From a bacterium (GTDB taxonomy: Bacteria; JAAXHH01): 64,000 nt of DNA. Numbering within the stretch: the stretch's first letter is position 1; the number at the start of each line of letters is the position of its first letter. Position numbers and translations under genes: made by a program. Shown here piece by piece: positions 4,313-63,996 of this stretch. The notes beneath the pieces were generated by a model. That model did no database searches, was not told the origin of the DNA, and was given only the letters and a program-made list of their open reading frames with translations. The stretch covers positions 311,072 to 375,071 of the forward strand of contig CBDEKM010000008.1 of NCBI GenBank assembly GCA_965240335.1, written 5' to 3'.

Positions 4313-4365
4313 ATAACAGATATATGTCAATGAATCCATGGCGGAACTCCGGTTCAACCTTTCCC

Positions 4366-27460: not shown

Positions 27461-27505
27461 GCATTGAGCCACGATAAGGATTCTACGCGACCAGGACTCC
27501 ACAAT

Positions 27506-43302: not shown

Positions 43303-43580
43303 GAACCCGGCGGCAAATCCGGACAGCGAAATCCCGCACCTAAACTTAATGCTTATTTTTGAGTGAGTAAAAACTGTTAAACAGGTCTTGACTTACGCTA
43401 TTACTACTCAACACTATTTAGTAAACATATCTTGACTTAATCTACATTTAGTATAGTAATTCATTTATAATTACAAATACACCGCACGGCGCGGCAGAAA
43501 CAGTCACATCAATACGGTAAGACCGGCCGACAACAATGTGGTATGACCGTTCGCCAGACTACCGGGGAAAGATCTTTGAA

Positions 43581-48300: not shown

Positions 48301-51300
48301 CGTTGAAGGACTCGATCGACCTGCCGAAGTTGGAACTGGCGGTGACGCCGGAAACTGTGATGGAAGAGCCGGCGATGGACGACGATGCCAATACTGATGG
48401 CGTTCAAACTGAATTGACCATCACCGCCACACTGGAAGGCGGAACCTTTGGGACTGATTTCGAGGTAGTCGTAGAAATCTCCGAGAATGAGGATTTCTAT
48501 ACCTTATCCGCAAACGAGGTGACCTTTACGATTAGCGCGAATGGCACGTCTGGAACCGGAACGGTGAACATCACGCCTGACCCGGACAGCAAGTTCGAGG
48601 CGTACCAGACGATCTCGTTCTCGGCCAAGGCGACTGAAGATGTTACTGAAGATGCGATCGAGTTGACGGCAAGCGATACGGTTCAGTTGCAGGACAACGA
48701 TCATCACGTGACCCTGTCCGTAGAGCCTTCGTCAGTGACCGAGGATGGCGGAGAGCAGACGGTGATCGTGACTGCGGAACTGACCGCTCCTGCGCCGATA
48801 GCGACCACGGTGCCGGTGACCTTGTCGCCCACGACTTCGTCGTTCTACAGTCTGGACGCTCATGCGTTGGCGATTCAGATTGGAGCCGGTTCGAGTTCCG
48901 GTACGGCGAAGCTGAACGTCACGCCAGTCGACAACGACACCTACAATGGCACCCAGAAGATCAAGGTTGACATTGCAGACTCGAGTCCGCTGGTACTTCG
49001 CGCATCTAAAGAGATCGTGGTGACCGACGACGAGAATCTGCCGGTGATGTCTTTGTCGGTGGATCCGGAGGAGATCACCGAGGCCGATGGCGCGCAGACG
49101 GTGAGCGTGACGGCGAAGCTGATGGACGGCGTGCTGCTGTCGACGCCCACGGTTGTGACGGTGAAGGTGGCCGACGATGACGAGCAGTACGCACTGAGTT
49201 CGAAAGAGTTCGCGATCACGATTCCTGCCAACCAGGCAACCATGTCGGCGAACCTGGTCATTACACCTGAGCCCGATGGGACCTACGAATCCCACATGGG
49301 TATCGGTCTATCGGCCGAAGCGACCATCAAGGACGGCGATGATGACGTCAAGCTCAGCGCTGCCGCGACGGTAACGTTGCTGGACGATGATCAGGAGGTC
49401 ACGCTGTCGGTGACTCCAGGTACTGTGAAGGGCGACGCGACAGAGGTTATCATCACGGCCACGCTGGACCGGCCGGCTCGGGGCAACAACGGTCTCACCG
49501 TACCCGTAATGATCGGGGCTTCAGGTGACAGCGGTTATAGTTGGTCAGCTGAAGGTGTAACCAGCCCAAGTCCTGGCGATGTGGTGAACATCGTGGTCCC
49601 AACGAGTGCCTCTGAGCAATCCATGGCGGTGACGATTACTCCTACTGGTGATTACGCCACCGGAACCGGCTACAATCGGGACGTGGGAATTGACGTTACG
49701 GTCACCAGTGCCAGCAACCTGCTGGGCCGGGAGGCGACGATCACGTTGAAGGACTCGATCGACCTGCCGAAGTTGGAACTGGCGGTGACGCCGGAAACTG
49801 TGATGGAAGAGCCGGCGATGGACGACGATGCCAATACTGATGGCGTTCAAACTGAATTGACCATCACCGCCACACTGGAAGGCGGAACCTTTGGGACTGA
49901 TTTCGAGGTAGTCGTAGAAATCTCCGAGAATGAGGATTTCTATACCTTATCCGCAAACGAGGTGACCTTTACGATTAGCGCGAATGGCACGTCTGGAACC
50001 GGAACGGTGAACATCACGCCTGACCCGGACAGCAAGTTCGAGGCGTACCAGACGATCTCGTTCTCGGCCAAGGCGACTGAAGATGTTACTGAAGATGCGA
50101 TCGAGTTGACGGCAAGCGATACGGTTCAGTTGCAGGACAACGATCATCACGTGACCCTGTCCGTAGAGCCTTCGTCAGTGACCGAGGATGGCGGAGAGCA
50201 GACGGTGATCGTGACTGCGGAACTGACCGCTCCTGCGCCGATAGCGACCACGGTGCCATTGACCTTGTCGCCCACGACTTCGTCGTTCTACAGTCTGGAC
50301 GCTCATGCGCTGGCGATTCAGATTGGAGCCGGATCGAGTACCGGCACGGCGAAGCTGAACGTCACGCCGGTCGACAACGACACCTACAATGGCACCCAGA
50401 AGATCAAGGTTGACATTGCAGACTCGAGTCCGCTGGTACTTCGCGCTTCTAAAGAGATCGCGGTGACCGACGACGAGAATCTGCCTGTGATGTCTTTGTC
50501 AGTGGATCCGGAAGAGATCAACGAGGCCGATGGCGCTCAGTCGGTGAGCGTAACGGCTAAGCTGATGGACGGCGTGCTGCTGCAGACGCCCACGGTTGTG
50601 ACGGTGAAGGTGGCCGACGATGACGAGCAGTACGCACTGAGCTCGAAAGAGTTCGCGATCACGATTCCTGCCAATCAGGAATCCATGTCTGCGAACCTGG
50701 TCATTACGCCGATACCGGATGGAGCGTACGAAGCTCACATGGGTATCGGTCTGTCGGCCGAAGCAACCATCAAGGACGGCGATGATGACGTCAAGCTCAG
50801 CGCTACCGCGACGGTAAAGCTGCTGGACGATGATCAGGAGATCACGCTGGCGGTGTCGACCGCGACGGTGAAGGGCAAGGCGACGGACGTAGCCATCACG
50901 GCTATGCTGGACCGGCCGGCCCGCGGTACTAACGGTCTCACCGTACCCGTAATGATCGGTGCCGACGGCGATGATCAGTATACTTTGTCGTCTGAAGGTA
51001 CCCCCAGTCTCGCACCAGGTGGCACGGTGAACATCGTGGTCGCCACAGGTACATCCGCGAAATCGGTAACTGTAACGGTGACGCCAGCCGAGACCTATGT
51101 CGCAACTGACATGAATTACGATCGTGATGTAGGGATCGATGTTACGATCGCTGATGGCACAGCTTTGCTGGGCCGGTCGACGAAGATCACGCTGAACGAC
51201 TCGATTGATCTGCCGAAGCTGGAACTGGCGGTGACGCCGGATACTGTGATGGAAGAGCCAGCAGTGGATGCTGATAATGATGCAGCTAATGGCGTTCAAA

Positions 51301-54300
51301 CGCGGCTGACCATCATGGCCACGCTGGACGGTGGAACCTTTACGAACAATTTCGATATTGTCGTAGAAGTTTCACAGGATACTGATTTCTACAGCGTGTC
51401 CTTGGAAGAGGTAACATTAACTGGTTCTGCTAACGGACCCTGGACCGGAACGGTGGATATCACGCCTGATCCGGACAGCAAGTTCGAGGCGTACCAGACA
51501 ATATCGTTCTCTGCCGAAGCGACCGAGCAGAATCCTCCTGCGGGAAGCGATGCGATCGAGTTGACGGCAAGCGATAAAGTGCAGTTACGTGACAATGATC
51601 ATCACGTGACGCTGGCTGTAGATCCAGCTTCAGTAAATGAAGAAGACGGAGTACAAACGGTAGAGGTGACGGCGATGTTGACCGCACCTGCGCCTGTAGC
51701 TACCACGGTGCCGGTGACGTTGTCGCCTGCGACCTCGTCGTACTACAGTCTGGACGCTCATGCACTGGCAATAGAGATCGGGGCCGGTTCGAGTGAAGGC
51801 ACGAAGGAACTTAACATCACACCGGTCGACAACGACACCTACAATGGCACCCAGAAGATCAAGGTTGACATTGCAGATTCAAGTCCCCTGGTACTTCGCG
51901 GTTCGAAAGAGATCTCGGTAATTGACGACGAAAGCCTGCCGGTGCTCGCACTGACAGTGGATCCGTCCGAAGTTAACGAGGGTGGTGGCGCTCAGTCAGT
52001 AAGCGTGACTGCTGAACTGGTCGACGGTGTCGTGTTGCAGACGCCTACAATCGTAACCGTGAAGGTGGACGCCGATGACGATCAGTATGCGTTGAGTTCA
52101 AAAGAGTTTGCGATTACGATTCCAGCCAATCGGGATTCGAGATCCGCGGACTTGATTATTACTCCTAAGTCTGATGGATTGTTCGAAGCTCACATGGCAA
52201 TAGGTCTGTCGGCAGAAACAACCATCAAAGACGGCGATGATGACGTAGATCTCAGCGCTGCAGCGACGGTAACGCTGTTGGACGATGATCATGAAGTCAC
52301 GCTATCGGTTTCACCTGGTGAGGTGTCGGAAGTTGGCGGAAGCTTTCCTGTGACTGTAAAGGCAAGATTGAATAGTCCCGCAAAGAGTGACCTCACGATA
52401 CCGGTTGAGATCGAAACATATGATGAGAATGCGAATTCTCATCCTATCGGGTTTACCGTGACGGATACTGACAACACACCGAATGACGGTATGGTTGATA
52501 TTTCCATTGCCGCTGGAAAGTCAGAGGCGTCAACTACGGTGATGATCGCCGCGACATACAATGCCGATCATACCGAAAACGCTGTCATTAACGTAACAGG
52601 AGGAGATATCGCATTATCGGTTAGACCAACAACAATCTTGATCAGAGACTACGAACAGGTCTCTATACAGTTATTGGCTAGCCATCCCAGTATCACTGAA
52701 GCCGGAGGTTTACAGACTGTTGAGATCACGGCTGAAATAACACCCAATGCAATCGGTGATGATGTAGCTATCAGTCTAGCAGTCGGTGGACAGGCGACAC
52801 TGAATGAAGATTTCGGCGTTAGTGGTTTGCTGGAAATCGAAATCGGTGCCGGTAGTACCGAGGGATCGACGGAACTTACCTTCATACCGGTTGACGATTT
52901 TGTGAATGAGTTCAACGAGACGATTACGGTTTCTGGTTCAACAGTTGGCGGACATAGTGTTAGCTCGGTATCCATTGTGTTGGCTGATAACAATGAGATA
53001 CCACTGGCTAGTATCTCGGCGCCTTCAGTTGAACTTAGCGAAGCTGATGATGCCGTAACCGAGATCGCAGTAACTGCTACGCTGGCTGGAACGAGTGGTG
53101 AACCTATTAATGTAGTGCTTGATATTAATGGTTCGGCCACGGCCGGTGTTGACTATGAGGTTAGTGGAGATCTCAGGTTCTCGATAAATCCCGGAGACAG
53201 CAGTTACACGGCTAATGTCGCAATCACGGTCTTGGATGATGCGCTCTATGAGGGTAATGAGACCGTTGTGATCGAAGCCAGCGCGTCCTTGGGAGATCTT
53301 GAACTACCCAATAGATCTCAACCATTGAGATATATGATTATTGACAACGATTCGGCACCGATGATTGCCCTCTCAGTGGATGTAGAAACAATAAATGAGG
53401 GTGACGAAGCGACGGATGTGACCATCACTGCCACCGCATCCAGTGCTAGTGCCGTCAACATTCCAATCACGTTGGCCAAGCCTGGTACGGCCGTAATTGG
53501 TGAAGACTTCATGGTCTCGTCCGAACAGGAAGATTTCATCATAATCGCAGGCGAAACTACAGCAACGAAGGTAGTGACGATCACGCCGATCGATGATGAA
53601 ATCTATGAAGGTGACGAGCACTTCATGGTCAACGGTACGGTACCGGGTTCCGACGGTGAAATAGACGTCGACGGCACGATGATCACGCTGACTGACAACG
53701 ATGATGTGCCGACGGTTGCACTGACCGTGGAACCCGATATGATTGCTGAGGGTAGTGAAGTCGAATTCACGATCACGGCCACGCCGTCTCACATGAGTTC
53801 CATGCCGATTACAATCGTACTGGACAAGTCGGGTGGATCGGCTACGCTTGGCGAGGATTTCGAGATTGTAGCGGCTACCGAAGGCGAGTACGTGATCGAA
53901 GCGATGGATTCGTCCGCTACGAAGATGGTCACGCTTTCGGCTATAGCCGATATGCTCTACGAGCAGGAAGAGATCATCGTTGTGGGTGGAATGTCAATGG
54001 CAGGTGATTCGGAAGGCATAGCGGTTATGACTGACGAGATCACGCTGACCGACGGCGATCCGATGCCGATGGTCACGCTGATGGCGGACATGGAGTCGAT
54101 CAATGAGAACGGCGAGGCCGTGGACGTAACGGTTACGGCCATGCTTTCCGGTTTGAGTTCCATGCCCATCACAGTGGAACTGGCCAAGTCCGGTTCGGCC
54201 ACGAAGGGCGAGGACTACACCGTAACCGGCGAAGGTGCAATCACGGTTGCTGCCGGCGATGAAATGGGTATGACGATACTGACGATCGTTCCGGTAGATG

Positions 54301-57300
54301 ACGATGTCTACGAACGCGATGAGATGATTGTCATAGGCGGTACGGCCGGCGATGAAATAGCCCAAGCCGCGTCGATCACCTTGGTGGACGACGATCCGAT
54401 GCCGATGGTGGTACTGATGACGGACGTGGTGTCTATCACCGAGAACGGTGGAGCCCAGGAAGTGACGGTAACGGCAACGCTGTCCGGCTTGAGTTCTTTG
54501 CCCATCACGGTTGAACTGGCCAAGTCCGGTTCGGCCACGAAGGACGAGGACTACACCGTAACCGGCGAAGGTTCCATCACGGTTGCTGCCGGCGATGAAA
54601 TGGGTATGACGATACTGACGATCGCCCCGGTAGATGATGATGTCTACGAACGCGATGAGATGATTGTCATAGGCGGTACGGCCGGCGATGAAATAGCCCA
54701 GGCCGCGTCGATCACCCTGGTAGACGACGAAACGAAGCCGATAGTGGAACTGATGACGGACGTGGTGTCTATCACCGAAGACAGTGGAGCCCAGGAAGTG
54801 ACGGTAACGGCAACGCTGTCCGGCTTGAGTTCTATGCCCATCACGGTTGAACTGGCCAAGTCCGGTTCGGCCACGAAGGGCGAGGACTACACCGTGACCG
54901 GCGAAGGTTCAATCACGGTTGCTGCCGGCGAAGAAATGGGTATGACAATTCTGACGATCGCCCCGGTAGATGATGTTGTCTACGAACGCGATGAGATGAT
55001 TGTCATAGGCGGTACGGCGGCCGGTGACGAAGTGGCTACGACAGCATCGATCACGCTGGTCGACGACGAAACCATGCCTACGATTGCCCTTTCAGTAGAC
55101 ACTGATTCCGTGATGGAGGATGGCGGCGATCAGGAGGTCGTGGTTACCGCGACGGCATCCGGCTTGAGTTCCATGCCCATCGATGTTGTACTGGCGAAGT
55201 CCGGTACGGCCATTAAGGGCGAGGATTACACTGTGACCGGCGATGGTACGATCACGGTCGCGGCTCTTGCGATCGACGGCGTTACGACGCTGACAATCAC
55301 ACCTGTAGACGACGACGTCTATGAGAATGATGAGACGATCGTGGTTGGCGGTGAAGGTGTGTTGGAATCGGCAACGGTGACGCTGGTTGATGACGAAACC
55401 ATGCCTATGTTCACGCTGATGGCGGATCCGTCGGCGGTCATGGAGAATGCCGGTCCTACGCCTGTCGTAGTGACGGCGACCGCTTCGGGACTTAGTTCGA
55501 TGCCCATGACCCTGACGCTCCTTCCGTTACCGGATCAAGGCACCATTACGATTGGTGAAGACGCGGGCGTGACGGGTGATCTGTTCATCACAGTTGTCCC
55601 CGGTGCGCTGGAAGGCAGCACGACACTGACGGCATTGGTTATTGACGACGATATCTACGAGGGCGACGAGTACGTTGTGATCGTTGGAAATATAGGTGAT
55701 ATGGTCACGCCATCCATTACACTGACCATCATCGATGACGAAATGCAGCCGACGGTCACGCTGTCGCTGGATCCCGAGGCCGTGGAAGAAGGTGGCGGAG
55801 CGCAGCCCTTCACCGTATCGGGTGAAGCTTCCGGCAGAAGTTCAATGGACATGACAGTCATGCTCGGTCCGTTGCCGACGAGTACGGTAACGCTGGGTGA
55901 AGACGGCATAGTCGATGGAACCATGTCGTTCGTCATATCCGCGCTGGAGACCGAAGGCAGCACGACGCTGACGGCCGTGCCAGCGGATGACGATCTCTAC
56001 GAGACGACGGAGTACCTGGTCGTCGGCGGTAGTGTGAACGGTGTACCTACTGCCAACGCGGTGACGCTGGCGATCATGGACAACGACTCGCCGGACGTAG
56101 CGTTGAGCGTGAGTCCGACAGCTATTCGTGAAGACGGCGGCGCCCAGACGGTCACCGTGGAAGTGGTGATGTCAGGTATACCAGTACCCGTACCGACAGA
56201 TATTTCGCTGGCCCTGTCGGGTACGGCCGGTAACGCCGATTACACCATGTCCGGTACGCCGACTCTGCAGATTGCCGCCGGTGAAACGACAGCGTCGACG
56301 CAGTTGACTTTCGCGGTTGTTCCCGACGATATCTACGAGCCAAGTAACGAGACCATCGTACTAACGGCGAATTGGAACGCCACGAATATCGGTTCAGCTA
56401 CAATTAACGTGATCGACGATTACGCTCCGCCTTCGGTAATTAGCGCGCTTCCCGCGATATCATTGGAAGCCGGTGATTCGAGGCAAATGGATGTGGCTGG
56501 TACTTTCAGCGGCCGGGTTCTGGTGTTCGCGGCAACATCTTCGGATGTCGGCATAGCCACTGCAACGCTTTCTGGATCGGCACTGACGATCGAGGGAGTG
56601 CGCAAGGGTGCGGCGCGGGTCACGGTCACGGCGACTAATGACGCGTCGTCCGCGAGTTACGATATAGATGTAACCGTCACGGCAATTGCTGCAGAGCGGG
56701 AAGTCTATACCGACATCCTGGCGGCTATGGCACGGAGCATCATGTCGAGCGTCTCGCAGACGATCGGCGGTCGGTTCTCCGTTGGCGCAGCGGAACGTCA
56801 GATCGCGCTGGCCAACAGGCGTGTGGACGGAATGGCGGCCGGTTTGGAAGCCATGATCAGCCTGTCCGGTGCTCAGTCGACAAGAAAGTACGGTATCACA
56901 GATGATACCACGAATCGGCTTAGCAGGCAGCCGGTCTCCACCCGTGAACTGATGCGCGGTACGTCCTTCTACTACGCCCTCGACGATGCACCTCAGGGCG
57001 GTACGAACGGCGGATTGAGCTTCACGATCTGGGGAGCTGGTGACTGGAATGCCTTCGAAGGTGCGCATGATGTGGGCACCAGTTACGACGGAACGGTGAC
57101 CTCCGGCTATCTCGGTATCGATGTATCGAAGACCGCCAGCTGGATCGCCGGTGTGGCTGTCGGACGTACCATGGGTACTTCGGACTACGATGTAACCGTC
57201 ACTGACGGAACGTTGGAAGCCACCCTGAACAGTGTGTATCCTTACGTACACTGGACGGGTCCCGGTTGCTGCATCGAAATCTGGGCTATCGGTGGTTTCG

Positions 57301-58121
57301 GTACGGGTGAAGCCGAAGTAAGCGACGGTACGAGCGACCTGTCCATGAGTCTGGGTATGGTCGGTGTGCGCGCCCAGTTGGTCGGCGCTGCATCGGGCGG
57401 TCTGGACCTCGACCTGATCGGTGACGCAGGAATGACCAAGCTGTCGACGGCTGACAGCGAGTCCGCTTCCCTGAGCGACCTGGAAGCCAGCGTACAGCGC
57501 GTACGCGTGGGTCTCGAAGCTTCACGTACCTCCGACATGGGCAACGGCATGCTGGTAACGCCTTTCGCCCAGGTAGCCGGTCGGTATGACGCAGGTGACG
57601 GTGATACGGGTAACGGTCTTGAAGTTGCCGGTGGTCTTCGGATTGCCGGTGGCAGGGCTGGTCTCGAAGCCCGCGGTCGCCTGCTTGCCATGCATACTGG
57701 CGAAGAAGTCAAGGAGCACGGCGTGTCGGTGGTTGCTTACGTGAGGCCGATGGGCGCCGGCGGACAGGGTCTGTCGATGGCTATCGCTCCTCGTCTCGGC
57801 GCTGATACCGAAATGTCCAGTAACATCTGGCGCGAAGAACCGATGAACGACGTTAGAAGTTCGTCTCGGTCAGGCGTCGGTATGAAAGCTGAAATCGGTT
57901 ACGGTCTCCTGACTCCGATGATGAGCAGCATCGTGGTGACTCCGTTCGGTACGATGGACATGGCCGGTGATGACCAGCGCCGCATGCGTCTTGGCGCACG
58001 GTTCGGTTCCATCGGCGACACGACTACCGTACTGAGATTCGAGCTCGTTGGCGAGCGCATCGACGGCAACGGCCGTGCGACGGATCATCGCATCGGCCTG
58101 CTCGGTAGGATGAGCTTCTAA
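45327..58121 (+). CDS. Giant (4264 aa) surface protein: signal peptide, >35 Calx-beta/Ig-like repeat domains, Big_2-like domain, C-terminal autotransporter-like beta-barrel
   Basis: AAGGAG SD 9 nt before ATG 45327. Signal peptide MRYISRFKNSIRASSVYSLAFMFVFALAANL. Recurrent Calx-beta signatures (GEDYTVTGEG..ITVAAGDEMGMTILTIVPVDDDVYERDEMIVIGG). Penultimate Big_2-like unit. Final ~430 aa show alternating-hydrophobic beta-strand patterns and end in ...LLGRMSF. GC about 52% versus about 63% in flanks. Confidence 0.75.
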   Translation: MRYISRFKNSIRASSVYSLAFMFVFALAANLTTYEEAHAQRSIQLIVDAPDPAELMETGTATTVTLSAEHVVIDEDLALPTEAITITVKLPVLEGMNPDYAITDTDGTDDGMVELTLTGASSNTVNFTITPRDDSVFEADRTISLTGEASGYVVLAAKIKLLDDDHQLELSVEPSTVNEDKGEQTVIVTANLTEDAPLATTVPLTISPASTSFYTLSATALSIQISAGSSSGTAKFNITPVDNDTYDGNQKIKVDLNDAQSNLALREAKEIVLADDESPPALDLSVSPSSIKEANGAQTVTVTAKLTDGVLLSSSTVVTVNIAANDDQYTLSTKVLAITIRAKRDSGSARLTITPEPDGTYERHMAIGLTGRATILDDVNISDTATVTLLDDDQEVTLSVSPATVKGAAAEVVITALLDRPARDASGFDVPITIGEANPSAYSLSAETDVGLSGNGLTITVPTGSSMRSVTVTVTPVDVYAAGNAQYNRDVEIGVDVADAGPLGRSAKITLKDSIDRPKLELAVTPETVMEEPAMDDDANTDGVQTELTITATLDGGTFQGDFGVVVEISEDDDFYTVSSKEVTLTPAGSSSGPWTGTVMVTPDPDSKFEAYQTISFSAKATEASPPDGSDAIELTASDTVQLQDNDHHVTLAVEPSSVTEEGGEQTVIVTAELTAPAPIATTVPVTLSPTTSSFYSLDAHVLSIQIGAGASSGTAKLNVTPVDNNTYNGTQKIKVDIADSSPLVLRATKEIAVTDDENLPVMSLSVDPDEITEAGGAQTVSVTAKLMDGVILSTPTVVTVKVVDDDEQYALSSKEFAITIPANQATMSANLLITPEPDGTYESHLGIGLSAEATIKDGDDDVKLSAATTVTLLDDDQEVTLSVSPATVKGEATDVVITATLDRPARGVNGLTVPVMIATGGSHSLTDEDGNAIANGLVNIVVPTSASAQSITVTVTPAGDYATGTGYNRDVGIDVTVTSASNLLGREATITLKDSIDLPKLELAVTPETVMEEPAMDDDANTDGVQTELTITATLEGGTFGTDFEVVVEISENEDFYTLSANEVTFTISANGTSGTGTVNITPDPDSKFEAYQTISFSAKATEDVTEDAIELTASDTVQLQDNDHHVTLSVEPSSVTEDGGEQTVIVTAELTAPAPIATTVPVTLSPTTSSFYSLDAHALAIQIGAGSSSGTAKLNVTPVDNDTYNGTQKIKVDIADSSPLVLRASKEIVVTDDENLPVMSLSVDPEEITEADGAQTVSVTAKLMDGVLLSTPTVVTVKVADDDEQYALSSKEFAITIPANQATMSANLVITPEPDGTYESHMGIGLSAEATIKDGDDDVKLSAAATVTLLDDDQEVTLSVTPGTVKGDATEVIITATLDRPARGNNGLTVPVMIGASGDSGYSWSAEGVTSPSPGDVVNIVVPTSASEQSMAVTITPTGDYATGTGYNRDVGIDVTVTSASNLLGREATITLKDSIDLPKLELAVTPETVMEEPAMDDDANTDGVQTELTITATLEGGTFGTDFEVVVEISENEDFYTLSANEVTFTISANGTSGTGTVNITPDPDSKFEAYQTISFSAKATEDVTEDAIELTASDTVQLQDNDHHVTLSVEPSSVTEDGGEQTVIVTAELTAPAPIATTVPLTLSPTTSSFYSLDAHALAIQIGAGSSTGTAKLNVTPVDNDTYNGTQKIKVDIADSSPLVLRASKEIAVTDDENLPVMSLSVDPEEINEADGAQSVSVTAKLMDGVLLQTPTVVTVKVADDDEQYALSSKEFAITIPANQESMSANLVITPIPDGAYEAHMGIGLSAEATIKDGDDDVKLSATATVKLLDDDQEITLAVSTATVKGKATDVAITAMLDRPARGTNGLTVPVMIGADGDDQYTLSSEGTPSLAPGGTVNIVVATGTSAKSVTVTVTPAETYVATDMNYDRDVGIDVTIADGTALLGRSTKITLNDSIDLPKLELAVTPDTVMEEPAVDADNDAANGVQTRLTIMATLDGGTFTNNFDIVVEVSQDTDFYSVSLEEVTLTGSANGPWTGTVDITPDPDSKFEAYQTISFSAEATEQNPPAGSDAIELTASDKVQLRDNDHHVTLAVDPASVNEEDGVQTVEVTAMLTAPAPVATTVPVTLSPATSSYYSLDAHALAIEIGAGSSEGTKELNITPVDNDTYNGTQKIKVDIADSSPLVLRGSKEISVIDDESLPVLALTVDPSEVNEGGGAQSVSVTAELVDGVVLQTPTIVTVKVDADDDQYALSSKEFAITIPANRDSRSADLIITPKSDGLFEAHMAIGLSAETTIKDGDDDVDLSAAATVTLLDDDHEVTLSVSPGEVSEVGGSFPVTVKARLNSPAKSDLTIPVEIETYDENANSHPIGFTVTDTDNTPNDGMVDISIAAGKSEASTTVMIAATYNADHTENAVINVTGGDIALSVRPTTILIRDYEQVSIQLLASHPSITEAGGLQTVEITAEITPNAIGDDVAISLAVGGQATLNEDFGVSGLLEIEIGAGSTEGSTELTFIPVDDFVNEFNETITVSGSTVGGHSVSSVSIVLADNNEIPLASISAPSVELSEADDAVTEIAVTATLAGTSGEPINVVLDINGSATAGVDYEVSGDLRFSINPGDSSYTANVAITVLDDALYEGNETVVIEASASLGDLELPNRSQPLRYMIIDNDSAPMIALSVDVETINEGDEATDVTITATASSASAVNIPITLAKPGTAVIGEDFMVSSEQEDFIIIAGETTATKVVTITPIDDEIYEGDEHFMVNGTVPGSDGEIDVDGTMITLTDNDDVPTVALTVEPDMIAEGSEVEFTITATPSHMSSMPITIVLDKSGGSATLGEDFEIVAATEGEYVIEAMDSSATKMVTLSAIADMLYEQEEIIVVGGMSMAGDSEGIAVMTDEITLTDGDPMPMVTLMADMESINENGEAVDVTVTAMLSGLSSMPITVELAKSGSATKGEDYTVTGEGAITVAAGDEMGMTILTIVPVDDDVYERDEMIVIGGTAGDEIAQAASITLVDDDPMPMVVLMTDVVSITENGGAQEVTVTATLSGLSSLPITVELAKSGSATKDEDYTVTGEGSITVAAGDEMGMTILTIAPVDDDVYERDEMIVIGGTAGDEIAQAASITLVDDETKPIVELMTDVVSITEDSGAQEVTVTATLSGLSSMPITVELAKSGSATKGEDYTVTGEGSITVAAGEEMGMTILTIAPVDDVVYERDEMIVIGGTAAGDEVATTASITLVDDETMPTIALSVDTDSVMEDGGDQEVVVTATASGLSSMPIDVVLAKSGTAIKGEDYTVTGDGTITVAALAIDGVTTLTITPVDDDVYENDETIVVGGEGVLESATVTLVDDETMPMFTLMADPSAVMENAGPTPVVVTATASGLSSMPMTLTLLPLPDQGTITIGEDAGVTGDLFITVVPGALEGSTTLTALVIDDDIYEGDEYVVIVGNIGDMVTPSITLTIIDDEMQPTVTLSLDPEAVEEGGGAQPFTVSGEASGRSSMDMTVMLGPLPTSTVTLGEDGIVDGTMSFVISALETEGSTTLTAVPADDDLYETTEYLVVGGSVNGVPTANAVTLAIMDNDSPDVALSVSPTAIREDGGAQTVTVEVVMSGIPVPVPTDISLALSGTAGNADYTMSGTPTLQIAAGETTASTQLTFAVVPDDIYEPSNETIVLTANWNATNIGSATINVIDDYAPPSVISALPAISLEAGDSRQMDVAGTFSGRVLVFAATSSDVGIATATLSGSALTIEGVRKGAARVTVTATNDASSASYDIDVTVTAIAAEREVYTDILAAMARSIMSSVSQTIGGRFSVGAAERQIALANRRVDGMAAGLEAMISLSGAQSTRKYGITDDTTNRLSRQPVSTRELMRGTSFYYALDDAPQGGTNGGLSFTIWGAGDWNAFEGAHDVGTSYDGTVTSGYLGIDVSKTASWIAGVAVGRTMGTSDYDVTVTDGTLEATLNSVYPYVHWTGPGCCIEIWAIGGFGTGEAEVSDGTSDLSMSLGMVGVRAQLVGAASGGLDLDLIGDAGMTKLSTADSESASLSDLEASVQRVRVGLEASRTSDMGNGMLVTPFAQVAGRYDAGDGDTGNGLEVAGGLRIAGGRAGLEARGRLLAMHTGEEVKEHGVSVVAYVRPMGAGGQGLSMAIAPRLGADTEMSSNIWREEPMNDVRSSSRSGVGMKAEIGYGLLTPMMSSIVVTPFGTMDMAGDDQRRMRLGARFGSIGDTTTVLRFELVGERIDGNGRATDHRIGLLGRMSF
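46491..52263 (+). repeat. Four tandem 1443-bp (481-aa) super-repeats inside the giant gene; copies 2 and 3 include >550 bp of 100% identity
   Basis: Units start with LLDDDQEVTLSVSPATVKG... at about 46491, 47934, 49377 and 50820. Identical spurious antisense ORFs at 48504-48707 and 49947-50150 (offset exactly 1443) confirm the period. Flanking repeat sequence is about 97% identical. Confidence 0.85.
54056..55060 (+). repeat. Three near-identical tandem 330-bp (110-aa Calx-beta) repeats, within a longer array of diverged copies (about 53340-56100)
   Basis: PMVTLMADMESINENGEAVDVTVTAMLSGLSSMPITVELAKSGSATKGEDYTVTGEG...ASITLVDDD repeated with only a few substitutions. Antisense ORFs 54308-54538 and 54644-54874 are near-identical. 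Confidence 0.8.
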
Positions 58122-58201
58122 GGACCGAAACAAAAATACCTGTTCGGGGTCAGCCTTAAGCGCCGACCCCGAAGGGCGTTTCTCGAAACGCCTGGAACAT
58201 G

Positions 58202-58260
58202 AAAGGGCGTTTGCAGGATCCGGTAAAAGACCAACCGGAAAATGCAGACGCCCTTTTCTT
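58202..58260 (+). terminator. Candidate intrinsic terminator of the giant gene: 14-bp stem (AAAGGGCGTTTGCA / TGCAGACGCCCTTT, one G-U), structured 26-nt loop, U-tract
   Basis: Arms at 58202-58215 and 58243-58256 followed by TTTTCTTT. Two shorter GC hairpins sit upstream (58145-58171, 58175-58192) without U-tracts. Confidence 0.4.
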
Positions 58261-58437
58261 TGGTATCTGTTCTTCAGTAACTTGGCCGTTTAACTGCGGA
58301 AAATGTAATGCGGGACCTGAGGCAGGAATGGGGCTCACCAAACGGGAGGAATTGAAGAAAATCGGTTTAAGGAAACCCAACGCTGTGGTCAATACACAGA
58401 GGTTGACTGTTTAATCTTCAATCGATATTTCGTTTTG

Positions 58438-60348
58438 TTAAAGGAACTTTACTGCCGTGTTTTTCGGATGAGGGTATACGTCTCGAGATATTCGATAGGA
58501 TCTTAATGCCCCGATCATATCACCCTTCTTCTGTAGAAACTCTCCATTAAGGTTGTATAGCCAGGCCTGCATCGGTTTGGACGTCGCTTCGCGCTTTCTG
58601 TATTCGGCTAGCGATATCCAATCGGAGACCTGTTCCCAGTAGGTTTGATTGCCGTATCGAAGCAGGGATGTTGCCATACCGATCAGACCGGAGTATTGCT
58701 CCGCCGCAAGGTCTATCAAGCCGCCCATCGAATCGAGGTACAGCGGATTTCCAGAATAGGTGACTATGCCCAAATACCGGCCGTATTCAAACATCAACTG
58801 ATTTCGAAGGTGTCGTTCCCAACGATCGACCGGTTGACTGTGGACAAGGCGCGTGAAGAATTCCTGTCCGCCGTCGTGGGGGTATAGTTCTATCGTTCCG
58901 GATTCAATCTCCCTTATGGCTTCACACAGAAAGCCGTAGTACCTGACACAACGGATGGGAAACAAACTCGTGTCTCCAATCACGAAAAGTCTGCGGTCGT
59001 TACTGTCGATGTACCGTTGTAGAATTTCCTTCCGTATTGGGATTTTCTCGAATGGACCGTAGAGGCGGTTGCTGTATATGAGACCGTCCAATGCATAGAA
59101 ATCGACATCCGGGCGGAGGTTTTCCACGTACTTGAAATACCCGATCGGCAGGACATTGTCGCCGTTTACGAACAACGCCGTGTTTTCTGGCAGAAAATCC
59201 AGGATAGTCTTTACGTATTATTCGGCGAAGTCACTCTCCGAACGGTCATTTGATTCCAGATTTCGATGCACCGACCAGCCGGCCATCGTAGTGAGGAAAA
59301 CCGCCGATAGATCTGCAATCAACAGTGACCTTTGGACGGTCTGAAAATCGCTATTCTGAAAAAATCGAAATCGTACCTGATGAGGGTGATCAATACGATA
59401 CTGTTGCCGAGTAAAACGAGTAGTCCCGACACAACGTGATAAACCCGCCGATTTTTCAAGAGGACTACAAGACCGATCACGGCGAGTGCGAAACCTGGAA
59501 GTGTCAGTTGCCAGACCAGCTCGTTGCCCAGCCACTGCAAGTATTCCAACCTGTCGTGCCACCCCGCGCTTGGGCTTGCGTCAGCGTAAGCGTATCCCCT
59601 TCGACTTACGTAGATCCAGAACTTCCTGAGTGAATTGATCGGACCGTAAAAGCTGATGGGTGTAATCTGGTTCGAGCGCCATACCATCCAGATGTACGGC
59701 ACGATGGTGGACAGCAGCAAAGCGCCGATATGCCGGGTCAGATTCCGATATAGGAAACGCCTTACTGGTACGGCCGGAAAAACCAATCCAGGCGTGGACA
59801 GTATCATCAGCGGCCAGTGATTGGCGAGGCTGAACCCGTAACATATGGCGCCCATGGTCCAGACCCAGGTTCGGTTTGGTTGGCGGACGCCGTACAGCAC
59901 CAGCCCTATACAGTCCGAATAAAAACAGCGCGTTTAACGTGTAGACCTCGGTGATAATCGCCTGGGACCAGAAGTGCTCGGAGGCTGCGAACAGCCAGGA
60001 CGAGGCGAGGGACGGAACCATGGATACACTCATCAGACGGGCGCACAGGTAAACACATCAGCATGCCAATGTGCCCAGCACCGCGCTGGACAGATGTCCC
60101 AGGAAAGCTGGACTCCCGAACGGAAGCTGAGTAAAGAGATAGACGATGAGATTATGAACAGGGTATTCGGGTGGGTGGGCTACACCGAGATGCGCGCCGG
60201 CCATGAGAAACAGCCCGTCGTCTTCCAACACCACCGTCAGGGGCATCGTAAAAACATATAAGTCCAAAGGTCCAAAAACTGATGCGGCGAGCGCCGGTCC
60301 ATCGTTATTGGCGTCGAACCACTTCGAACCGTCACGGTTTCGATTCAT
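58438..60348 (-). pseudogene. DUF2723 (GT117/TMEM260-like putative protein O-mannosyltransferase) gene, fragmented by 2 in-frame stops and 2 frameshifts
   Basis: N-terminal fragment with the family signature GAHLGVAHPPEYP (60058-60348). In-frame TGA at 60058-60060 (...GTLAC*CVYLCARLMSVSMVPSL...). Frameshift near 59890. Frameshift at an A7/T7 run near 59350. In-frame TAA at 59218-59220 (...SDFAE*YVKTILDFLPENTALFVNGDNVLPIGYF...). Lower GC (~48%). Confidence 0.55.
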
Positions 60349-60506
60349 GGGGTGGTATCCTTAGATATCTTCCCTTTGCTGTTGACACTTATCTTAACTT
60401 ATTACAATATATGTAGGTTAAATGCTCTGAAAAGGCGGAATATCCGGCTATCCTGATGGTGGCCCTTCATATCTTGATGTCAGATGTAGTCCTAAGGGAG
60501 AAGACC

Positions 60507-60968
60507 ATGAAAACGCTAAAACGCGTATTAGCGGTAATCGCTGTGTCGACGGGCGTTGCGTGCGCACAAGCACCGCCTCCCCCTGAAGCAGTCTATCTGA
60601 ACTCGGAAAAAGCGGCTGACAGGAACCTCCCCTTTTCCGAGGCGGTACGCGTAGGACAAGTTTTGTATCTTTCAGGACAGATTGGCACGCAGCAAGGCTC
60701 ATTGGAAGTGGTTCCCGGCGGCATTCAGGCCGAAGCCGCTCAGACCATGGAGAACATAAAAGCGGTCCTGGAAGCAAATGGATCTTCCCTGGACCGGGTG
60801 GTCAAGGCAACGGTCATGCTGGCGGATATCGCGGAATGGCCAGCCTTTAATGAAGTGTACGTAACGTACTTTCCTGGTCCGAAACCAGCCCGCAGTGCAT
60901 TCGCGGGAAGTGGTCTGGCTCTAGGAGCCCGGTGCGAGGTCGAGGTGATTGCCCTGGTGGGAGAGTAG
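60507..60968 (+). CDS. RidA/YjgF family protein with signal peptide (periplasmic)
   Basis: Start ATG 60507 with AAGGGAGAAG upstream. Signal peptide MKTLKRVLAVIAVSTGVACAQA. RidA fold motifs (VRVGQVLYLSGQIG..., PARSAFAGSGLALGARCEVEVIA). Confidence 0.75.
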   Translation: MKTLKRVLAVIAVSTGVACAQAPPPPEAVYLNSEKAADRNLPFSEAVRVGQVLYLSGQIGTQQGSLEVVPGGIQAEAAQTMENIKAVLEANGSSLDRVVKATVMLADIAEWPAFNEVYVTYFPGPKPARSAFAGSGLALGARCEVEVIALVGE

Positions 60969-60996
60969 TGTTCTGAATAGACGCGAGGACGAAGAC

Positions 60997-61440
60997 ATGT
61001 CGAAAGGCAAGTTCTGGCACGATGGCGTGAAGTTCAGTTGTCAGCAATGTGGGCACTGCTGCACCTTTCCGGGCGGGTTCGTGTACGGCAGCGAAAAGGA
61101 ATTCCGGCGCATCGCCGAATACCTGAACCTACCCTTCGAGACCTTTCTGGAACGTTACACGGAGGAGATCGACGGGAAAGTCTCGTTGGTATCGCCGGAC
61201 AACGGACCGTGCGTTTTCTATGACAACGGATGTTCGATCTATCCGGTGCGGCCGTCCCAGTGCAGCAGCTATCCCTTCTGGCAGGACATTCTTAAATCCC
61301 GGAGACGATGGGAACGGGAAGCAGAGATGTGCCGGGGCATGGACCGCGGTAAGCAGTGGACTCGAAAGGAGATCGAGTCCCAGGTCAACGCGAGGGCAAC
61401 GAATCTCATGAACGCTGAATCGAGGGAGGACGAATCATGA
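60997..61440 (+). CDS. YkgJ family (UPF0153) cysteine-cluster protein
   Basis: Start at MSKGKFWHDG. CQQCGHCC ... CVFYDNGCSIYPVRPSQCSSYP cysteine pattern typical of YkgJ/Fe-S-or-zinc cluster proteins. Confidence 0.65.
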   Translation: MSKGKFWHDGVKFSCQQCGHCCTFPGGFVYGSEKEFRRIAEYLNLPFETFLERYTEEIDGKVSLVSPDNGPCVFYDNGCSIYPVRPSQCSSYPFWQDILKSRRRWEREAEMCRGMDRGKQWTRKEIESQVNARATNLMNAESREDES

Positions 61441-62795
61441 AAGAGGACATCACGGTCGACGAAGATCGTATCGACGAGGATCTTATAGACGAAGAAACCC
61501 GTTCTCCGCGGCTGAATCGGCGTGGCTTTCTAAGGATCGGCGCACTGGCCGGAGTCGCGGGCGTGGCAGCTGCGAGTTGCGCAGGGATGGATGGTGCGGG
61601 AGAAGGTGGAGGCGGCGCGGTCGAAGCGGTAAAGAGTCCGGAGGACGTCGCGGCCGATCTGCAGGATAACGTCTATACACGGATGCTCGGCGTACGGCCC
61701 CATGTCGGCGCCCATTCGCATCTGTCCAGTATGGGTGGTTCCCGCATGCCGCCGGAGGTCATGGAGGCGATGACCGAGGCCAATCGTTTCTTCGTGGATA
61801 TGCAGGACCTCCACGAAGCAGCCGGGCGCCGTCTCGCGGAAATCGCAGGCTCCGAGGACGCGCTGGTCTCGTCCGGCGCCTTCGCCGCGTTGCTCGTTGG
61901 CGCGGCCGGGGTCCTTACCGGGACCGATACGGAGCGCATGGCGGAACTGCCCCGTCCGACCTGGCCAAAGGTCGAATGCCTTTTTCAAACGCCGCACCGG
62001 TTCTTCTACGACATGGTCTTTCAGTACGCGGGCATGACGCTGGTGGAAGCAGATACGAGGGAAGCCTACGAGGCGGCGATCACGGACCGTACGGCCCTGC
62101 TCGTGGGGCTGTCCTTCATCGAGCATCAGAACACAGGGAGGCCGCCGTTTCCCGCGAAGTACCGCGAGCCGACCCCGGCGGAAACGCTCCTGCCGGAGGA
62201 GATCATCGAAATCGGCAAACGGAAAGGCGTGCCGGTCATGATCGACATGGCTTCCGACGTGCGCCCCATCAAAAACCTGAAGCGCTATATCGAAATGGGG
62301 GCAGACCTGGTCATCGTCAGCGGCGGCAAGGCGCTGCGGGGCCCCAATTCGTCGGGCATCCTGGCGGGTCGCGGGGATATCATCGAAGCCGCGCGGATGC
62401 AGAACGCGCCGAACAACGGGATCGGCCGGGGACTCAAGGTGGGCAAGGAAGAGATCGTCGGTCTCATCGCCGCGGTGGAGCAGTTCATCGCTATCGACGA
62501 AGACGAAATGATCGCGGAATGGAACCGGAAGGCCCAGTGGGTTGCGGATCAGCTCCAGGACATACCCGGTCTCGAGGCCAGTTACGAGATCAATACGGCC
62601 GGTTACGCCGACGTGGAACTGATCTGGGACCAGGAAATCATCTCCCTTTCCCGGGACGACGTCAACAAGGCGCTTAAGGAGGGCTCTCCGAGCATCATCT
62701 ACTACGGGGAAGGTATCTGCACCAAGCAGTTCGAGAACGGCGAGGAGGTCCTCGTCGCCAACCGGCTGCGTGAGTTATTTACAGCAGGAAGCTGA
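61437..62795 (+). CDS. SelA-like fold-type I PLP-dependent enzyme with twin-arginine (Tat) signal peptide
   Basis: Tat motif SPRLNRRGFLRIGALAGVAGVAAA. SelA-family blocks EDALVSSGAFAALLVGAAGVLTG and VIVSGGKALRGPNSSGILAGR (PLP lysine) align with E. coli SelA (EDALVVNNNAAAVLL..., [20 protein letters not shown]). Confidence 0.5.
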   Translation: MKEDITVDEDRIDEDLIDEETRSPRLNRRGFLRIGALAGVAGVAAASCAGMDGAGEGGGGAVEAVKSPEDVAADLQDNVYTRMLGVRPHVGAHSHLSSMGGSRMPPEVMEAMTEANRFFVDMQDLHEAAGRRLAEIAGSEDALVSSGAFAALLVGAAGVLTGTDTERMAELPRPTWPKVECLFQTPHRFFYDMVFQYAGMTLVEADTREAYEAAITDRTALLVGLSFIEHQNTGRPPFPAKYREPTPAETLLPEEIIEIGKRKGVPVMIDMASDVRPIKNLKRYIEMGADLVIVSGGKALRGPNSSGILAGRGDIIEAARMQNAPNNGIGRGLKVGKEEIVGLIAAVEQFIAIDEDEMIAEWNRKAQWVADQLQDIPGLEASYEINTAGYADVELIWDQEIISLSRDDVNKALKEGSPSIIYYGEGICTKQFENGEEVLVANRLRELFTAGS

Positions 62796-62886
62796 TAGAA
62801 TTTAGGTACGGTGTGGGCGTGATCGGCGGATGACCGATGGCCTGATTGACCGATGCTTTTCCTGTGACGGAGCGAACGAAGAACAA

Positions 62887-63996
62887 ATGACCGATGATCG
62901 GCTGACCTACGAAGATTCCGGCGTGGATTACGACCGGATCGATCCGCTGAAGGTCCTGGCCCAGCGGGCGGCACGGACCACGGGGATCAATCTGGAAGGC
63001 GCCGGCGTGCGCGAGGTGGCCGCCAGCCGTGGGGAATCGGCCTACGTCGTGGACATCGGCGACGCGTACCTGGCCTCCATCACCGAATGCCTGGGCACCA
63101 AGGCCCTTGTGGCCGACGCGGTGCGTGGGCCGTCGGGACGGACCTGGTACGACCATATTGCGCAGGACACCATCGCTACGGCCGTCAACGACATCATAAC
63201 CGTCGGAGCCCGGCCCCTGAGCATACATGCCTACTGGGCCGCGGGATCTTCTGACTGGTTCGACGACGAAGCGCGCATGAACGACCTGGTATCGGGTTGG
63301 AAGGCGGCCTGCGACGTGCTGGGCGTGACCTGGGGCGGCGGCGAGACCCCATGCCTGACGGGCGTGGTGGTAGAAAGCGCCATCGACCTGGCCGCTTCCT
63401 GCGTGGGGATCATACGCCCTAAATTGCGTCTCACCCTGGGGGAGGACCTGGCGCCCGGGGACGCGATCATCCTCCTGGAGAGCAGCGGTATCCACGCCAA
63501 TGGCCTCACCCTGGCCCGCAAGCTGGCGGAAAGGCTCCCGGATGGGTACGCCACGGCCATGGCCGATGGCCGGATGTACGGCGAGGCGTTGCTGGACCCC
63601 ACCGTGCTCTATCCTCCCGTGACCGAGGCGGCTTTCGAGGCCGGAATCGACCTGCATTACATCGCCAACATTACCGGCCACGGATGGCGTAAGATCATGC
63701 GCCATCCCGGAAGCTTCACCTACCGAATCACCGAAGTGCCGCCCGTGCCCGAGGTCTTGCGGTTTATGGCGGATGAGTCCCGGCAGACGCCGGAAGAAGC
63801 CTACGGCAGCCTGAACATGGGCGCGGGGTTCGCCCTCTTCGTCCCTCCCGGGGACGTGGGGAAGGCGGTGGCCTGTGCCGATAGGTGCGGCGTGCGGGCT
63901 TGGCATGCCGGCGTAGTGGAGGATGGCCCCCGCCAGGTGGTCATCGAACCGCTGGGGGTGACTTTGGCCGGCGAAAGCCTGGCTTTACGGGGTTGA
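62887..63996 (+). CDS. AIR synthase (PurM)-family protein, likely phosphoribosylformylglycinamidine cyclo-ligase
   Basis: N-terminus LTYEDSGVDYDRIDPLK is PurM-like (SYKDAGVDIDAGN). Blocks ECLGTKALVA, NDIITVGARPLSIHAYWA, ITGHGWRKI, LNMGAGFALFV match PurM. An upstream in-frame ATG at 62830 would add a 19-aa extension. Confidence 0.6.
   Translation: MTDDRLTYEDSGVDYDRIDPLKVLAQRAARTTGINLEGAGVREVAASRGESAYVVDIGDAYLASITECLGTKALVADAVRGPSGRTWYDHIAQDTIATAVNDIITVGARPLSIHAYWAAGSSDWFDDEARMNDLVSGWKAACDVLGVTWGGGETPCLTGVVVESAIDLAASCVGIIRPKLRLTLGEDLAPGDAIILLESSGIHANGLTLARKLAERLPDGYATAMADGRMYGEALLDPTVLYPPVTEAAFEAGIDLHYIANITGHGWRKIMRHPGSFTYRITEVPPVPEVLRFMADESRQTPEEAYGSLNMGAGFALFVPPGDVGKAVACADRCGVRAWHAGVVEDGPRQVVIEPLGVTLAGESLALRG

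Follow-up and report, generated by a model that had tools for sequence, protein, structure and literature searches.

A predicted exported lipoprotein RidA and a Tat-signal PLP enzyme of the DgaE/Cap15 branch as a candidate extracytoplasmic deamination pair

We analyzed a 64,000-nucleotide stretch of bacterial DNA (contig CBDEKM010000008.1, positions 311,072 to 375,071; hereafter the window), the end of which carries four co-directional plus-strand genes: ridA, ykgJ, a gene for a pyridoxal 5'-phosphate (PLP) enzyme, and a purM-like gene. The RidA protein and the PLP enzyme are very probably both exported, each being a predicted signal peptidase II lipoprotein, and the locus would thereby hold two exported lipoproteins on either side of a cytoplasmic YkgJ protein rather than a periplasmic trio. 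We propose that the exported PLP enzyme and the exported RidA together deaminate an amino compound outside the cytoplasm, a model that we regard as evenly poised between right and wrong. It is built on the family placement of the proteins, their signals and the conservation of these signals, the synteny of the locus, and an intact DgaE/Cap15-type PLP scaffold, all of which we observed. A first-pass annotation of the window had described a periplasm-targeted trio of RidA, YkgJ, and a SelA-like PLP enzyme, and had read it as an extracytoplasmic unit for amino-acid or selenium/sulfur processing. Its three co-directional genes are where it placed them, and the export signals of RidA and the PLP enzyme stand, but the trio and the SelA identity do not, and the interpretation holds only in part.

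The window RidA matches the Pfam family Ribonuc_L-PSP (PF01042, 1.3e-29), passes the cutoff of the TIGR00004 model (109.5 vs. 106.25 bits), and aligns with solved RidA/UK114 structures over its full length. The arginine of its PARSAF motif is the equivalent of the catalytic Arg105 and aligns with the PARAAY arginine of rat PSP. Its N-terminus, MKTLKRVLAVIAVSTGVAC followed by AQAPPPP, fits a PROSITE-type lipobox with Cys19; the signal reads MKTLKRVLAVIAVSTGVA-C19, with AVIAVSTGVAC as the lipobox pattern. A lipobox is present in 111 of the 120 homologues, and all orthologues bear signals of the ..AGC or ..VGC type, followed by Pro/Glu/Ala-rich linkers. No ribosome-binding site precedes the longer ridA open reading frame (ORF) that starts at 60456, and P0281, a database protein with 93% identity, likewise has 153 residues. 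The general secretory (Sec)-type signal claimed earlier for RidA is, hence, present as a conserved Sec/lipoprotein signal. By its sequence, the window RidA is predicted to be an archetypal enamine/imine deaminase of the RidA subfamily in the form of an exported lipoprotein. The homologue searches with RidA and YkgJ yielded almost only sequences of the close clade described below and say little on the wider distribution of either protein.

The PLP enzyme begins with an acidic n-region of 27 residues, followed by N-R28-R29-G-F-L-R, a Gly/Ala-rich h-region (the residues after the RR motif read IGALAGVAGVAAAS), and the lipobox AAAS-C48. This arrangement fits the consensus that we used for the twin-arginine translocation (Tat) pathway, (S/T/N)-R-R-x-F-L-(K/R) with an uncharged h-region of at least 12 residues, kept among orthologues, and among all six-frame segments of at least 150 residues in the window, the PLP enzyme is the sole match to the strict Tat-like pattern. 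The lipobox pattern [LIVMFWSTAG]2-[LIVMFYSTAGCQ]-[AGS]-C, required after an uncharged stretch, fits both Cys19 of RidA and Cys48 of the PLP enzyme, and the mean Kyte-Doolittle hydropathy of the h-region is 2.4 in RidA and 1.8 in the PLP enzyme. An alignment of 33 diverse PLP-enzyme homologues shows no exception to R28 or R29, with F31 conserved to at least 90%. Of the 120 closest homologues, which reach down to ~50% identity, 116 have the twin-arginine (RR) motif, and a lipobox follows it in 76 of 118; the RR-bearing homologues come from Gemmatimonadota, 'Latescibacterota', Acidobacteriota/Vicinamibacteria, Zixibacteria, and Longimicrobiales. The twin-arginine signal that the first-pass annotation read in this enzyme is supported by this conservation. 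Orthologues of at least 63% identity (among P0001-P0058) share a conserved MDEDIRE-like N-terminus with a net charge of -2 to -13 over 22-58 residues, and such an acidic n-region could delay export or bind a chaperone. In one related locus (L094), a housekeeping-type tatC gene with a long acidic C-terminal tail (3164-4333) lies 37 nt 5' of the PLP orthologue (4371-5699).

The PLP enzyme had been labelled a SelA-family protein, a label that proved imprecise. The SelA equivalog model TIGR00474 gives 29.0 bits vs. a cutoff of 267.9 and matches only residues 209-352, the Pfam SelA match is weak, and the N-terminal tRNA-binding domain of SelA is not present in the enzyme. The best models are those of the DgaE family, TIGR01437 (163.2 vs. 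385.3 bits) and NF047797 (130.6 vs. 600 bits), both of them below their cutoffs. In sequence searches of the PDB, the enzyme matches Cap15 (8T7J; 5.9e-42, 30-32% identity), DgaE (7LC0; 1.3e-25, 26% identity), and several entries of true SelA (2e-4, 17-20% identity). Foldseek comparisons give target-normalised template-modelling scores (TM-scores) of 0.86 with Cap15 and 0.84 with DgaE, and with SelA a TM-score of about 0.5-0.6 and a root-mean-square deviation above 5 Å. The AlphaFold2 model has a predicted local distance difference test (pLDDT) value of 83; it is confident from residue 63 to residue 452, and low pLDDT marks residues 1-62 as disordered, as would be expected of a signal and a linker. 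Homology to the solved relatives begins only at residue 78-82, and the N-terminus consists of the 48-residue Tat/lipobox signal and a Gly-rich linker. On these grounds, we place the enzyme, by sequence and fold comparison, as a predicted fold-type I member of the DgaE/Cap15 branch of the SelA-like superfamily that is neither SelA nor DgaE. The SelA/selenium identity was rejected on the hidden Markov model (HMM) score, the absent N-terminal domain, and the structural distance, and orthology to DgaE was rejected on both cutoffs and the missing His-His pair described below. The proposed selenium/sulfur role loses its support with the SelA identity, and no sel genes were seen. Homologues are widely annotated as 'L-seryl-tRNA(Ser) seleniumtransferase' in databases, a label that should be dropped for this family.

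The active site combines a shared PLP scaffold with features of its own. H187, D270, K298 (in SGGK), R312, R331, K334, and K337 are common to the PLP enzyme, DgaE, Cap15, and 64 other superfamily members; the family shows no variation at K298, D270, and R312, which align with Lys213, the PLP-N1 aspartate of the DAA motif, and Arg226 (the α-carboxylate arginine) of DgaE. The histidines His162 and His163 of DgaE align to Tyr-Arg in the PLP enzyme in the HMMER pairwise comparison, and in the family alignment, this region (columns 229-237) is a Pro-rich insertion without a conserved histidine. Conversely, H89, H93, and H95 are conserved in 30, 30, and 29 of 30 family members, respectively, in positions where other relatives, Tat and cytoplasmic alike, have V/I, A/S, and T, DgaE has V-C-K, and Cap15 has V-Q-N. 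The motif of this triad, P-H-x-G-A-H-(E/S)-H, takes the place of the V/I-N-A-x-G-T loop that every other relative has, DgaE and Cap15 among them, and R103, F189, E229, and the Pro-rich insertion are further family-specific features. The His triad is possibly a metal site or a replacement acid/base group.

Previous work established that DgaE is an ammonia-lyase in which the strictly conserved His163 protonates C3 of the product, so that an imine rather than an enamine leaves the enzyme, and that the H163A mutant lets the enamine go (PMC9529869). All three characterised relatives use β-hydroxy-α-amino acid moieties. A DgaE-type β-elimination via an enamine would give RidA a rationale (PMC9529869). 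In the scheme that we propose, the PLP enzyme would fold and take up PLP in the cytoplasm, by analogy with PvdN and PtaA (PMC6206403), and would then be exported in the folded state by the Tat pathway via N-R-R-G-F-L-R and receive a lipid anchor at Cys48. Outside the cytoplasm, it would most likely catalyze an α,β-elimination (ammonia-lyase/dehydratase) on an α-amino acid that bears β-hydroxy or a comparable leaving group, for example a hydroxy-amino acid or an amino-sugar acid. Because the proton-donor histidines of DgaE are absent, the enzyme would release an enamine/imine, which RidA, exported by Sec, anchored at Cys19, and co-expressed, would hydrolyze to a 2-oxo acid and ammonium. Both products may then be taken up, which would amount to nutrient or nitrogen scavenging. 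YkgJ and the PurM-like protein would remain in the cytoplasm, placed here by inherited gene order.

Support for the pairing comes from a second subfamily of Tat-signal relatives. A profile search of 1.84 billion representatives returned 5,389 relatives at E <= 1e-3, of which 1,164 reach E <= 1e-30. The next-best matches past the tight family are mostly cytoplasmic; 40 of 147 fit a permissive RR pattern, and 24 near-full-length ones hold RR within the first 45 residues. These RR-bearing sequences represent other Tat subfamilies. We sampled one of them, P0157-like, in 80 metagenome loci (L102-L181), 75 of which have the RR motif. In 64 of these loci, the sequence extends 500 nt or more upstream of the PLP gene; 21 of the 64 have a Rid gene immediately 5' of it, in the same orientation and with a gap of 8-163 nt, and 20 of these 21 Rid proteins have an RR signal of their own; other loci have lipoprotein-type or downstream Rid genes. 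The Rid proteins belong to PF01042 and score below the RidA-subfamily cutoff. Some Rid gene is present in 37 of the 80 loci vs. 2 of the 59 distant control loci of the window family (Fisher p = 3e-9). The linkage is not frozen synteny, because the Rid-adjacent loci are diverse, with a median pairwise PLP-enzyme identity of 54% and a minimum of 43%. Examples are L109, with the Rid gene at 5504-5983 and the PLP gene at 6001-7212, and L111 (3256-4521). An extracytoplasmic unit of RidA and a PLP enzyme, as first suggested for the window, is made plausible by the 21 linked loci in so far as the pairing is concerned; this does not extend to the YkgJ and selenium/sulfur parts of that suggestion.

Further genes recur in this second subfamily. 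A signal-peptide amidohydrolase/deacetylase is encoded in 39 of the 80 loci (NF006689, 448 bits vs. 371), a fusion of glucose/sorbosone dehydrogenase (GSDH) and cytochrome c in 14, lactonases in 6-9, SGL-type gluconolactonases in 6, and an RraA-like aldolase in 8-9; TonB-dependent receptors recur as well. The module, in the order Tat-Rid, Tat-PLP enzyme, and signal-peptide amidohydrolase, could serve a periplasmic amino-sugar-acid pathway, and the gene content would fit a non-phosphorylative route from amino sugar to lactone, N-acetyl-aldonate, amino-aldonate, and finally 2-keto-3-deoxy acid plus NH4+. An amino-sugar-acid substrate was not transferred to the window enzyme, because these partners are absent from its loci.

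To describe the neighborhood of the window family itself, 80 genome loci with the PLP family were fetched, 20 from a close clade (PLP enzyme at least 63% identical; median pairwise identity 72%) and 59 distant ones (46-56%). YkgJ is present in 19, RidA in 17, and the PurM-like gene in all of the 20 close loci. RidA and YkgJ genes range from abutting to ~800 nt apart in the close clade, with two small ORFs inserted in some genomes, and the overlap of the ykgJ and PLP genes occurs only in the window, L001, and L004; the other close loci have a gap of 13-150 nt. YkgJ is near the PLP gene in none and RidA in two of the 59 distant loci, and the expected co-conservation of the three genes largely fails outside one lineage. 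L034 has a different, lipoprotein-type RidA that is convergent and adjacent to the PLP homologue, and in L044, a RidA gene lies 5 kb from it. We combined tblastn, HMMs, and all-against-all clustering with a Pfam scan of 75 directly adjacent genes to look for conserved neighbors in the 59 distant loci, and obtained only a heterogeneous set (BNR/sortilin 6-7, Aminotran_5 5, peptidase M20 4, and amidohydrolase 2). In L008 (8001-9284 and 9612-10742) and L009 (8052-9338 and 9693-10823), the PLP gene is duplicated in tandem between ykgJ and the purM-like gene.

A sister lineage, L098 (PLP enzyme 68% identical), has the order acs, thiolase, aminotransferase, methyltransferase, radical-SAM, ridA (lipoprotein), ykgJ, kefF-like, Na+/H+ exchanger, PLP enzyme, and AIRS-family gene, beyond which come MR_MLE, RDD, and M14 genes. 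In the window, acs lies at 40056-42128 and thiolase at 43536-44702, and the downstream genes are shared with L085-87. Because L098 and L085-87 are collinear with the window, the entire region of ~20 kb is a single inherited syntenic block. Within it, the exported RidA gene and the PLP gene stay within ~3 kb of each other in both the window clade and L098 despite the rearrangement between them. In L098, ykgJ overlaps the kefF-like gene by 4 nt, and the kefF-like and exchanger genes lie between it and the PLP gene; in L094, likewise, YkgJ is coupled to a KefF-like gene and stands at a distance of two or three genes from the PLP gene. The junction between ykgJ and the PLP gene in the window clade looks like the result of the loss of the kefF-like and exchanger genes rather than of a selected coupling.

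The YkgJ protein matches PF03692 (CxxCxxCC; 8.8e-12, 46 bits vs. a cutoff of 23), and its Cys clusters are SCQQCGHCC (C-x2-C-x2-CC) and, downstream, GPC...GC...QC; it has no match among solved structures. A signal peptide was found neither in the window protein nor in any orthologue, which contradicts a periplasm-targeted trio, and the genes of homologues with 53-62% identity stand alone, away from any PLP enzyme. From its sequence, YkgJ is probably a cytoplasmic bystander of the exported pair, not a member of a unit with it. A role as a Tat chaperone or partner of the PLP enzyme, suggested by the 4-nt overlap, was considered and rejected as the main reading, given that distant homologues stand alone and that the sister-lineage gene overlaps the kefF-like gene, with two genes intervening before the PLP gene. 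The reading of the locus as a three-protein extracytoplasmic selenium/sulfur or amino-acid unit in which YkgJ partners a SelA-like enzyme is largely refuted and now barely credible. It could draw on the stop/start overlap in the window, L001, and L004, on gaps that do not exceed 150 nt in the remaining close loci, and on the weak Pfam SelA match; these are outweighed by the SelA model score, the lack of the SelA N-terminal domain, the TM-score of ~0.55, the missing signal peptide, the stand-alone homologues, the 0 of 59 distant loci, and the coupling to the KefF-like gene in L098 and L094.

The protein encoded next to the PLP gene contains AIRS and AIRS_C domains, scores below the cutoff of TIGR00878 (162 vs. 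236 bits), and matches PurM structures in the PDB at 2e-36. It is ~72-87% identical across the clade and always comes next after the PLP gene (20 of 20 close loci, and L098); it is probably cytoplasmic and a syntenic housekeeping neighbor. Its N-terminal extension contains Cys (MTDGLIDRCFSCDG...).

Several observations weigh against the proposal that an exported DgaE-like lyase works with RidA, and they concern the signal, the linkage, and the chemistry. As for the signal, the Tat model TIGR01409 gives the PLP enzyme 9.4 bits vs. a threshold of 16.7, two other Tat-signal models match the same residues weakly and below threshold, and the n-region is unusually long and acidic, with 12 Asp/Glu vs. 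4 Lys/Arg before R28. The low HMM scores and the atypical n-region are what one would point to if the N-terminal extensions were start-codon artefacts and both proteins cytoplasmic, an explanation that we consider highly improbable. There is no alternative ATG, GTG, or TTG start between the ATG at 61437 and the RR codons, and the GGGAGGA site is strong; the RR, h-region, and lipobox are kept across phyla, whereas the surrounding sequence is not; and the Rid domain of RidA begins only at residue 33. A mis-called start, which had been named as one way in which the Tat signal might prove spurious, is thus improbable.

As for the linkage, no RidA gene is near 57 of the 59 distant loci of the window's own family, and within the close clade, the adjacency of RidA and the PLP gene is not separable from general synteny. 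Both points bear on the rather unlikely alternative that the two are coincidental neighbors, each exported and independent of the other, with RidA serving another periplasmic imine source or acting as a stress holdase and the synteny being meaningless. The collinearity from acs/thiolase through RidA, YkgJ, the PLP enzyme, and the PurM-like protein to RDD, MR_MLE, and M14 in the window, L085-87, and L098 agrees with such a coincidence, as do the variable RidA-YkgJ spacing with inserted small ORFs, the 2 of 59 distant loci, which is roughly chance level, and the heterogeneous immediate neighbors of the distant homologues. However, coincidence leaves aside that both proteins are lipoproteins of one compartment, that the Rid-PLP linkage in the sister Tat subfamily is strong, independent, and non-syntenic, and that RidA has a chemical logic beside eliminating PLP enzymes (PMC9529869).

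As for the chemistry, the invariant His triad and the Pro-rich insertion mean that the reaction may differ from that of DgaE, the closest structural relative, Cap15, is an O2-dependent monooxygenase-decarboxylase rather than a lyase, and the amidohydrolase, GSDH, lactonase, SGL, and RraA-like partners of the second subfamily are absent from the loci of the window family. The enzyme might instead be a Cap15/PvdN-like O2-dependent PLP oxidase/decarboxylase that tailors or degrades an extracytoplasmic amino-acid-containing metabolite, with RidA, if involved at all, hydrolyzing an imine product; we judge this improbable. Cap15 is the best match in both sequence and structure (5.9e-42, 32% identity, TM-score 0.86), an aerobe has O2 in its periplasm, PvdN is a decarboxylating PLP enzyme exported by Tat (PMC6206403, PMC7497351), and the family-specific His triad could serve a new chemistry. 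On the other hand, reaction specificity is not transferable at 32% identity, no biosynthetic gene cluster surrounds the gene, and the carboxamide product of Cap15 needs no RidA.

The proposed pair of an exported eliminating enzyme and RidA can be joined with the second subfamily in a broader reading, which we put forward tentatively and with some doubt. Exported Rid proteins, with a Tat or lipoprotein signal, and Tat-exported DgaE-like lyases would constitute a widespread system for deamination in the periplasm; this would be the first example in bacteria of the RidA paradigm beyond the cytoplasm; and the window subfamily would be a mechanistically distinct branch, possibly metal-assisted, acting on another substrate.

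The features of the locus are collected in Table 1. The promoter-like element was read by eye and was not called in the consensus scan, which wants a spacer of 16-18 nt; the TTGACA-15 nt-TACAAT arrangement is weak evidence for a ridA promoter. The translational coupling ascribed to YkgJ is real in the window at its 3' end, where the stop of ykgJ and the start of the PLP gene overlap by 4 nt (ATGA), and does not extend to the other end, where ridA and ykgJ are 28 nt apart without overlap. No plus-strand terminator was predicted between the four genes, and an Rfam scan of 57500-64000 found no riboswitch or small RNA at E <= 1.

Table 1. Coordinates of the ridA-to-purM-like features in the window
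Feature	Position	Strand	Details
Promoter-like element	60382..60408	+	TTGACA, 15-nt spacer, TACAAT; ~100 nt 5' of ridA, in an AT-rich stretch
ridA	60507..60968	+	153 aa; GGGAG 8 nt before ATG
ridA signal plus lipobox, aa 1-19	60507-60563	+	followed by PPPP linker; Rid domain aa 33-152
ykgJ	60997..61440	+	147 aa; GAGGA ribosome-binding site
PLP-enzyme gene	61437..62795	+	452 aa; GGGAGGA ribosome-binding site
PLP enzyme, predicted Tat signal	61437..61580	+	n-region aa 1-27, R28-R29 (61518-61523), h-region, lipobox Cys48 (61578-61580)
PLP enzyme, His triad H89, H93, H95	61701..61721	+	motif P-H-x-G-A-H-(E/S)-H
PLP enzyme, Lys298 codon	62328..62330	+	predicted PLP Schiff-base lysine, SGGK; alignment with DgaE Lys213 and the Cap15 SGPK lysine
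purM-like gene	62830..63996	+	388 aa; 34 nt 3' of the PLP-enzyme gene

Directly 5' of ridA, the minus strand at 58438-60348 holds four consecutive ORF fragments, two of which match the TMEM260-like protein O-mannosyltransferase family; with a GC content of 0.47-0.52 vs. 0.56-0.66 in the flanks, this segment is probably a frameshifted pseudogene. Between thiolase and ridA lies a gene for a 4316-aa protein (45171-58121, plus strand) with long near-identical repeat modules, Calx-beta domains, and a C-terminal autotransporter β-domain. It looks like a lineage-specific insertion or replacement, because L098 has aminotransferase, methyltransferase, and radical-SAM genes at that place. A further protein of 2020 aa (27464-33526, plus strand) has many leucine-rich repeats and Big_2 Ig-like domains, and this eukaryote-like repeat protein fits the sponge-/coral-associated names of the metagenome-assembled genomes closest to the window. 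Two gene fusions on the plus strand join a PfkB sugar kinase to a SIS domain (17666-19351) and a homocysteine S-methyltransferase to MTHFR (20253-22130).

The biology of RidA has been worked out almost wholly in the cytoplasm, where free 2-aminoacrylate damages PLP enzymes. If the proposed pair is real, enamine/imine stress would be handled in the periplasm too, or RidA there would speed the release of ammonium and oxo acids. A third, large, and environmentally abundant family would then join the short list of Tat-exported PLP enzymes, PvdN and PtaA; at E <= 1e-30, the profile search of the wider superfamily recovered ~1,160 cluster representatives, of which a substantial share bear RR signals. 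It would also reveal an unrecognised extracytoplasmic step of nitrogen or amino-sugar scavenging in Gemmatimonadota, Acidobacteriota, and sponge-/coral-associated lineages. In the literature, we found no description of an exported or lipoprotein bacterial RidA, of a Tat-exported DgaE-like enzyme, or of their pairing, and no paper for PDB 8T7J.

Comparisons of the window enzyme with known systems indicate likeness in parts and differences in each case. With SelA, it shares the broad superfamily, the SGxK PLP-lysine motif, and the weak Pfam match, but SelA needs cytoplasmic tRNA and selenophosphate, whereas the window enzyme is predicted to be exported and is without the tRNA-binding domain. DgaE belongs to the same fold-type I SelA-like branch and aligns over the full length, with the PLP lysine, the aspartate, the carboxylate arginine (R312 = R226), H187, R331, K334, and K337 in common; nevertheless, the identity is only ~26%, the scores are below both cutoffs, and the His triad and the Pro-rich insertion stand in place of the His162/His163 pair. 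Moreover, DgaE is cytoplasmic, the window gene has no phosphotransferase system or DgaF aldolase genes near it, and a 6-phosphate substrate in the periplasm would be unlikely for its product. Cap15, an O2- and PLP-dependent monooxygenase-decarboxylase of capuramycin biosynthesis that uses a β-hydroxy-α-amino acid substrate (PMC7497351), is the closest solved relative, but it is a cytoplasmic Streptomyces enzyme of an antibiotic gene cluster, with no signal peptide and no RidA partner.

For export, the nearest parallels are PvdN and PtaA, the Pseudomonas pyoverdine PLP enzymes that are loaded with the cofactor in the cytoplasm, exported folded by Tat, and act in the periplasm (PMC6206403); given these two characterised enzymes, the extracytoplasmic setting had been called unusual for PLP chemistry with too much emphasis. 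They differ from the window enzyme in their PLP subfamilies, one being a class-V-like decarboxylating oxygenase and the other a transaminase, and in acting on a siderophore precursor, and as far as described, they are not lipoproteins; neither has a RidA partner. For the pairing of an imine- or enamine-generating deaminating enzyme with a Rid protein, there are three parallels. The periplasmic L-amino-acid oxidase of Chlamydomonas, composed of M-alpha and the RidA-type M-beta, is located beyond the plasma membrane and serves to scavenge ammonium (PMC5053998); the ong cluster has OngD, a RidA protein that is essential beside the PLP glucosaminate deaminase OngC (PMC9537276); and Gluconacetobacter diazotrophicus has a cluster of a Tat-exported L-amino-acid oxidase and RidA. 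In these systems, however, the generator is a flavin oxidase or a fold-type III PLP enzyme rather than a DgaE-like one, and OngC and OngD are cytoplasmic. Since there are precedents both for PLP enzymes exported by Tat and for a RidA partner outside the cytoplasm, the concept proposed here for the window pair is not categorically new.

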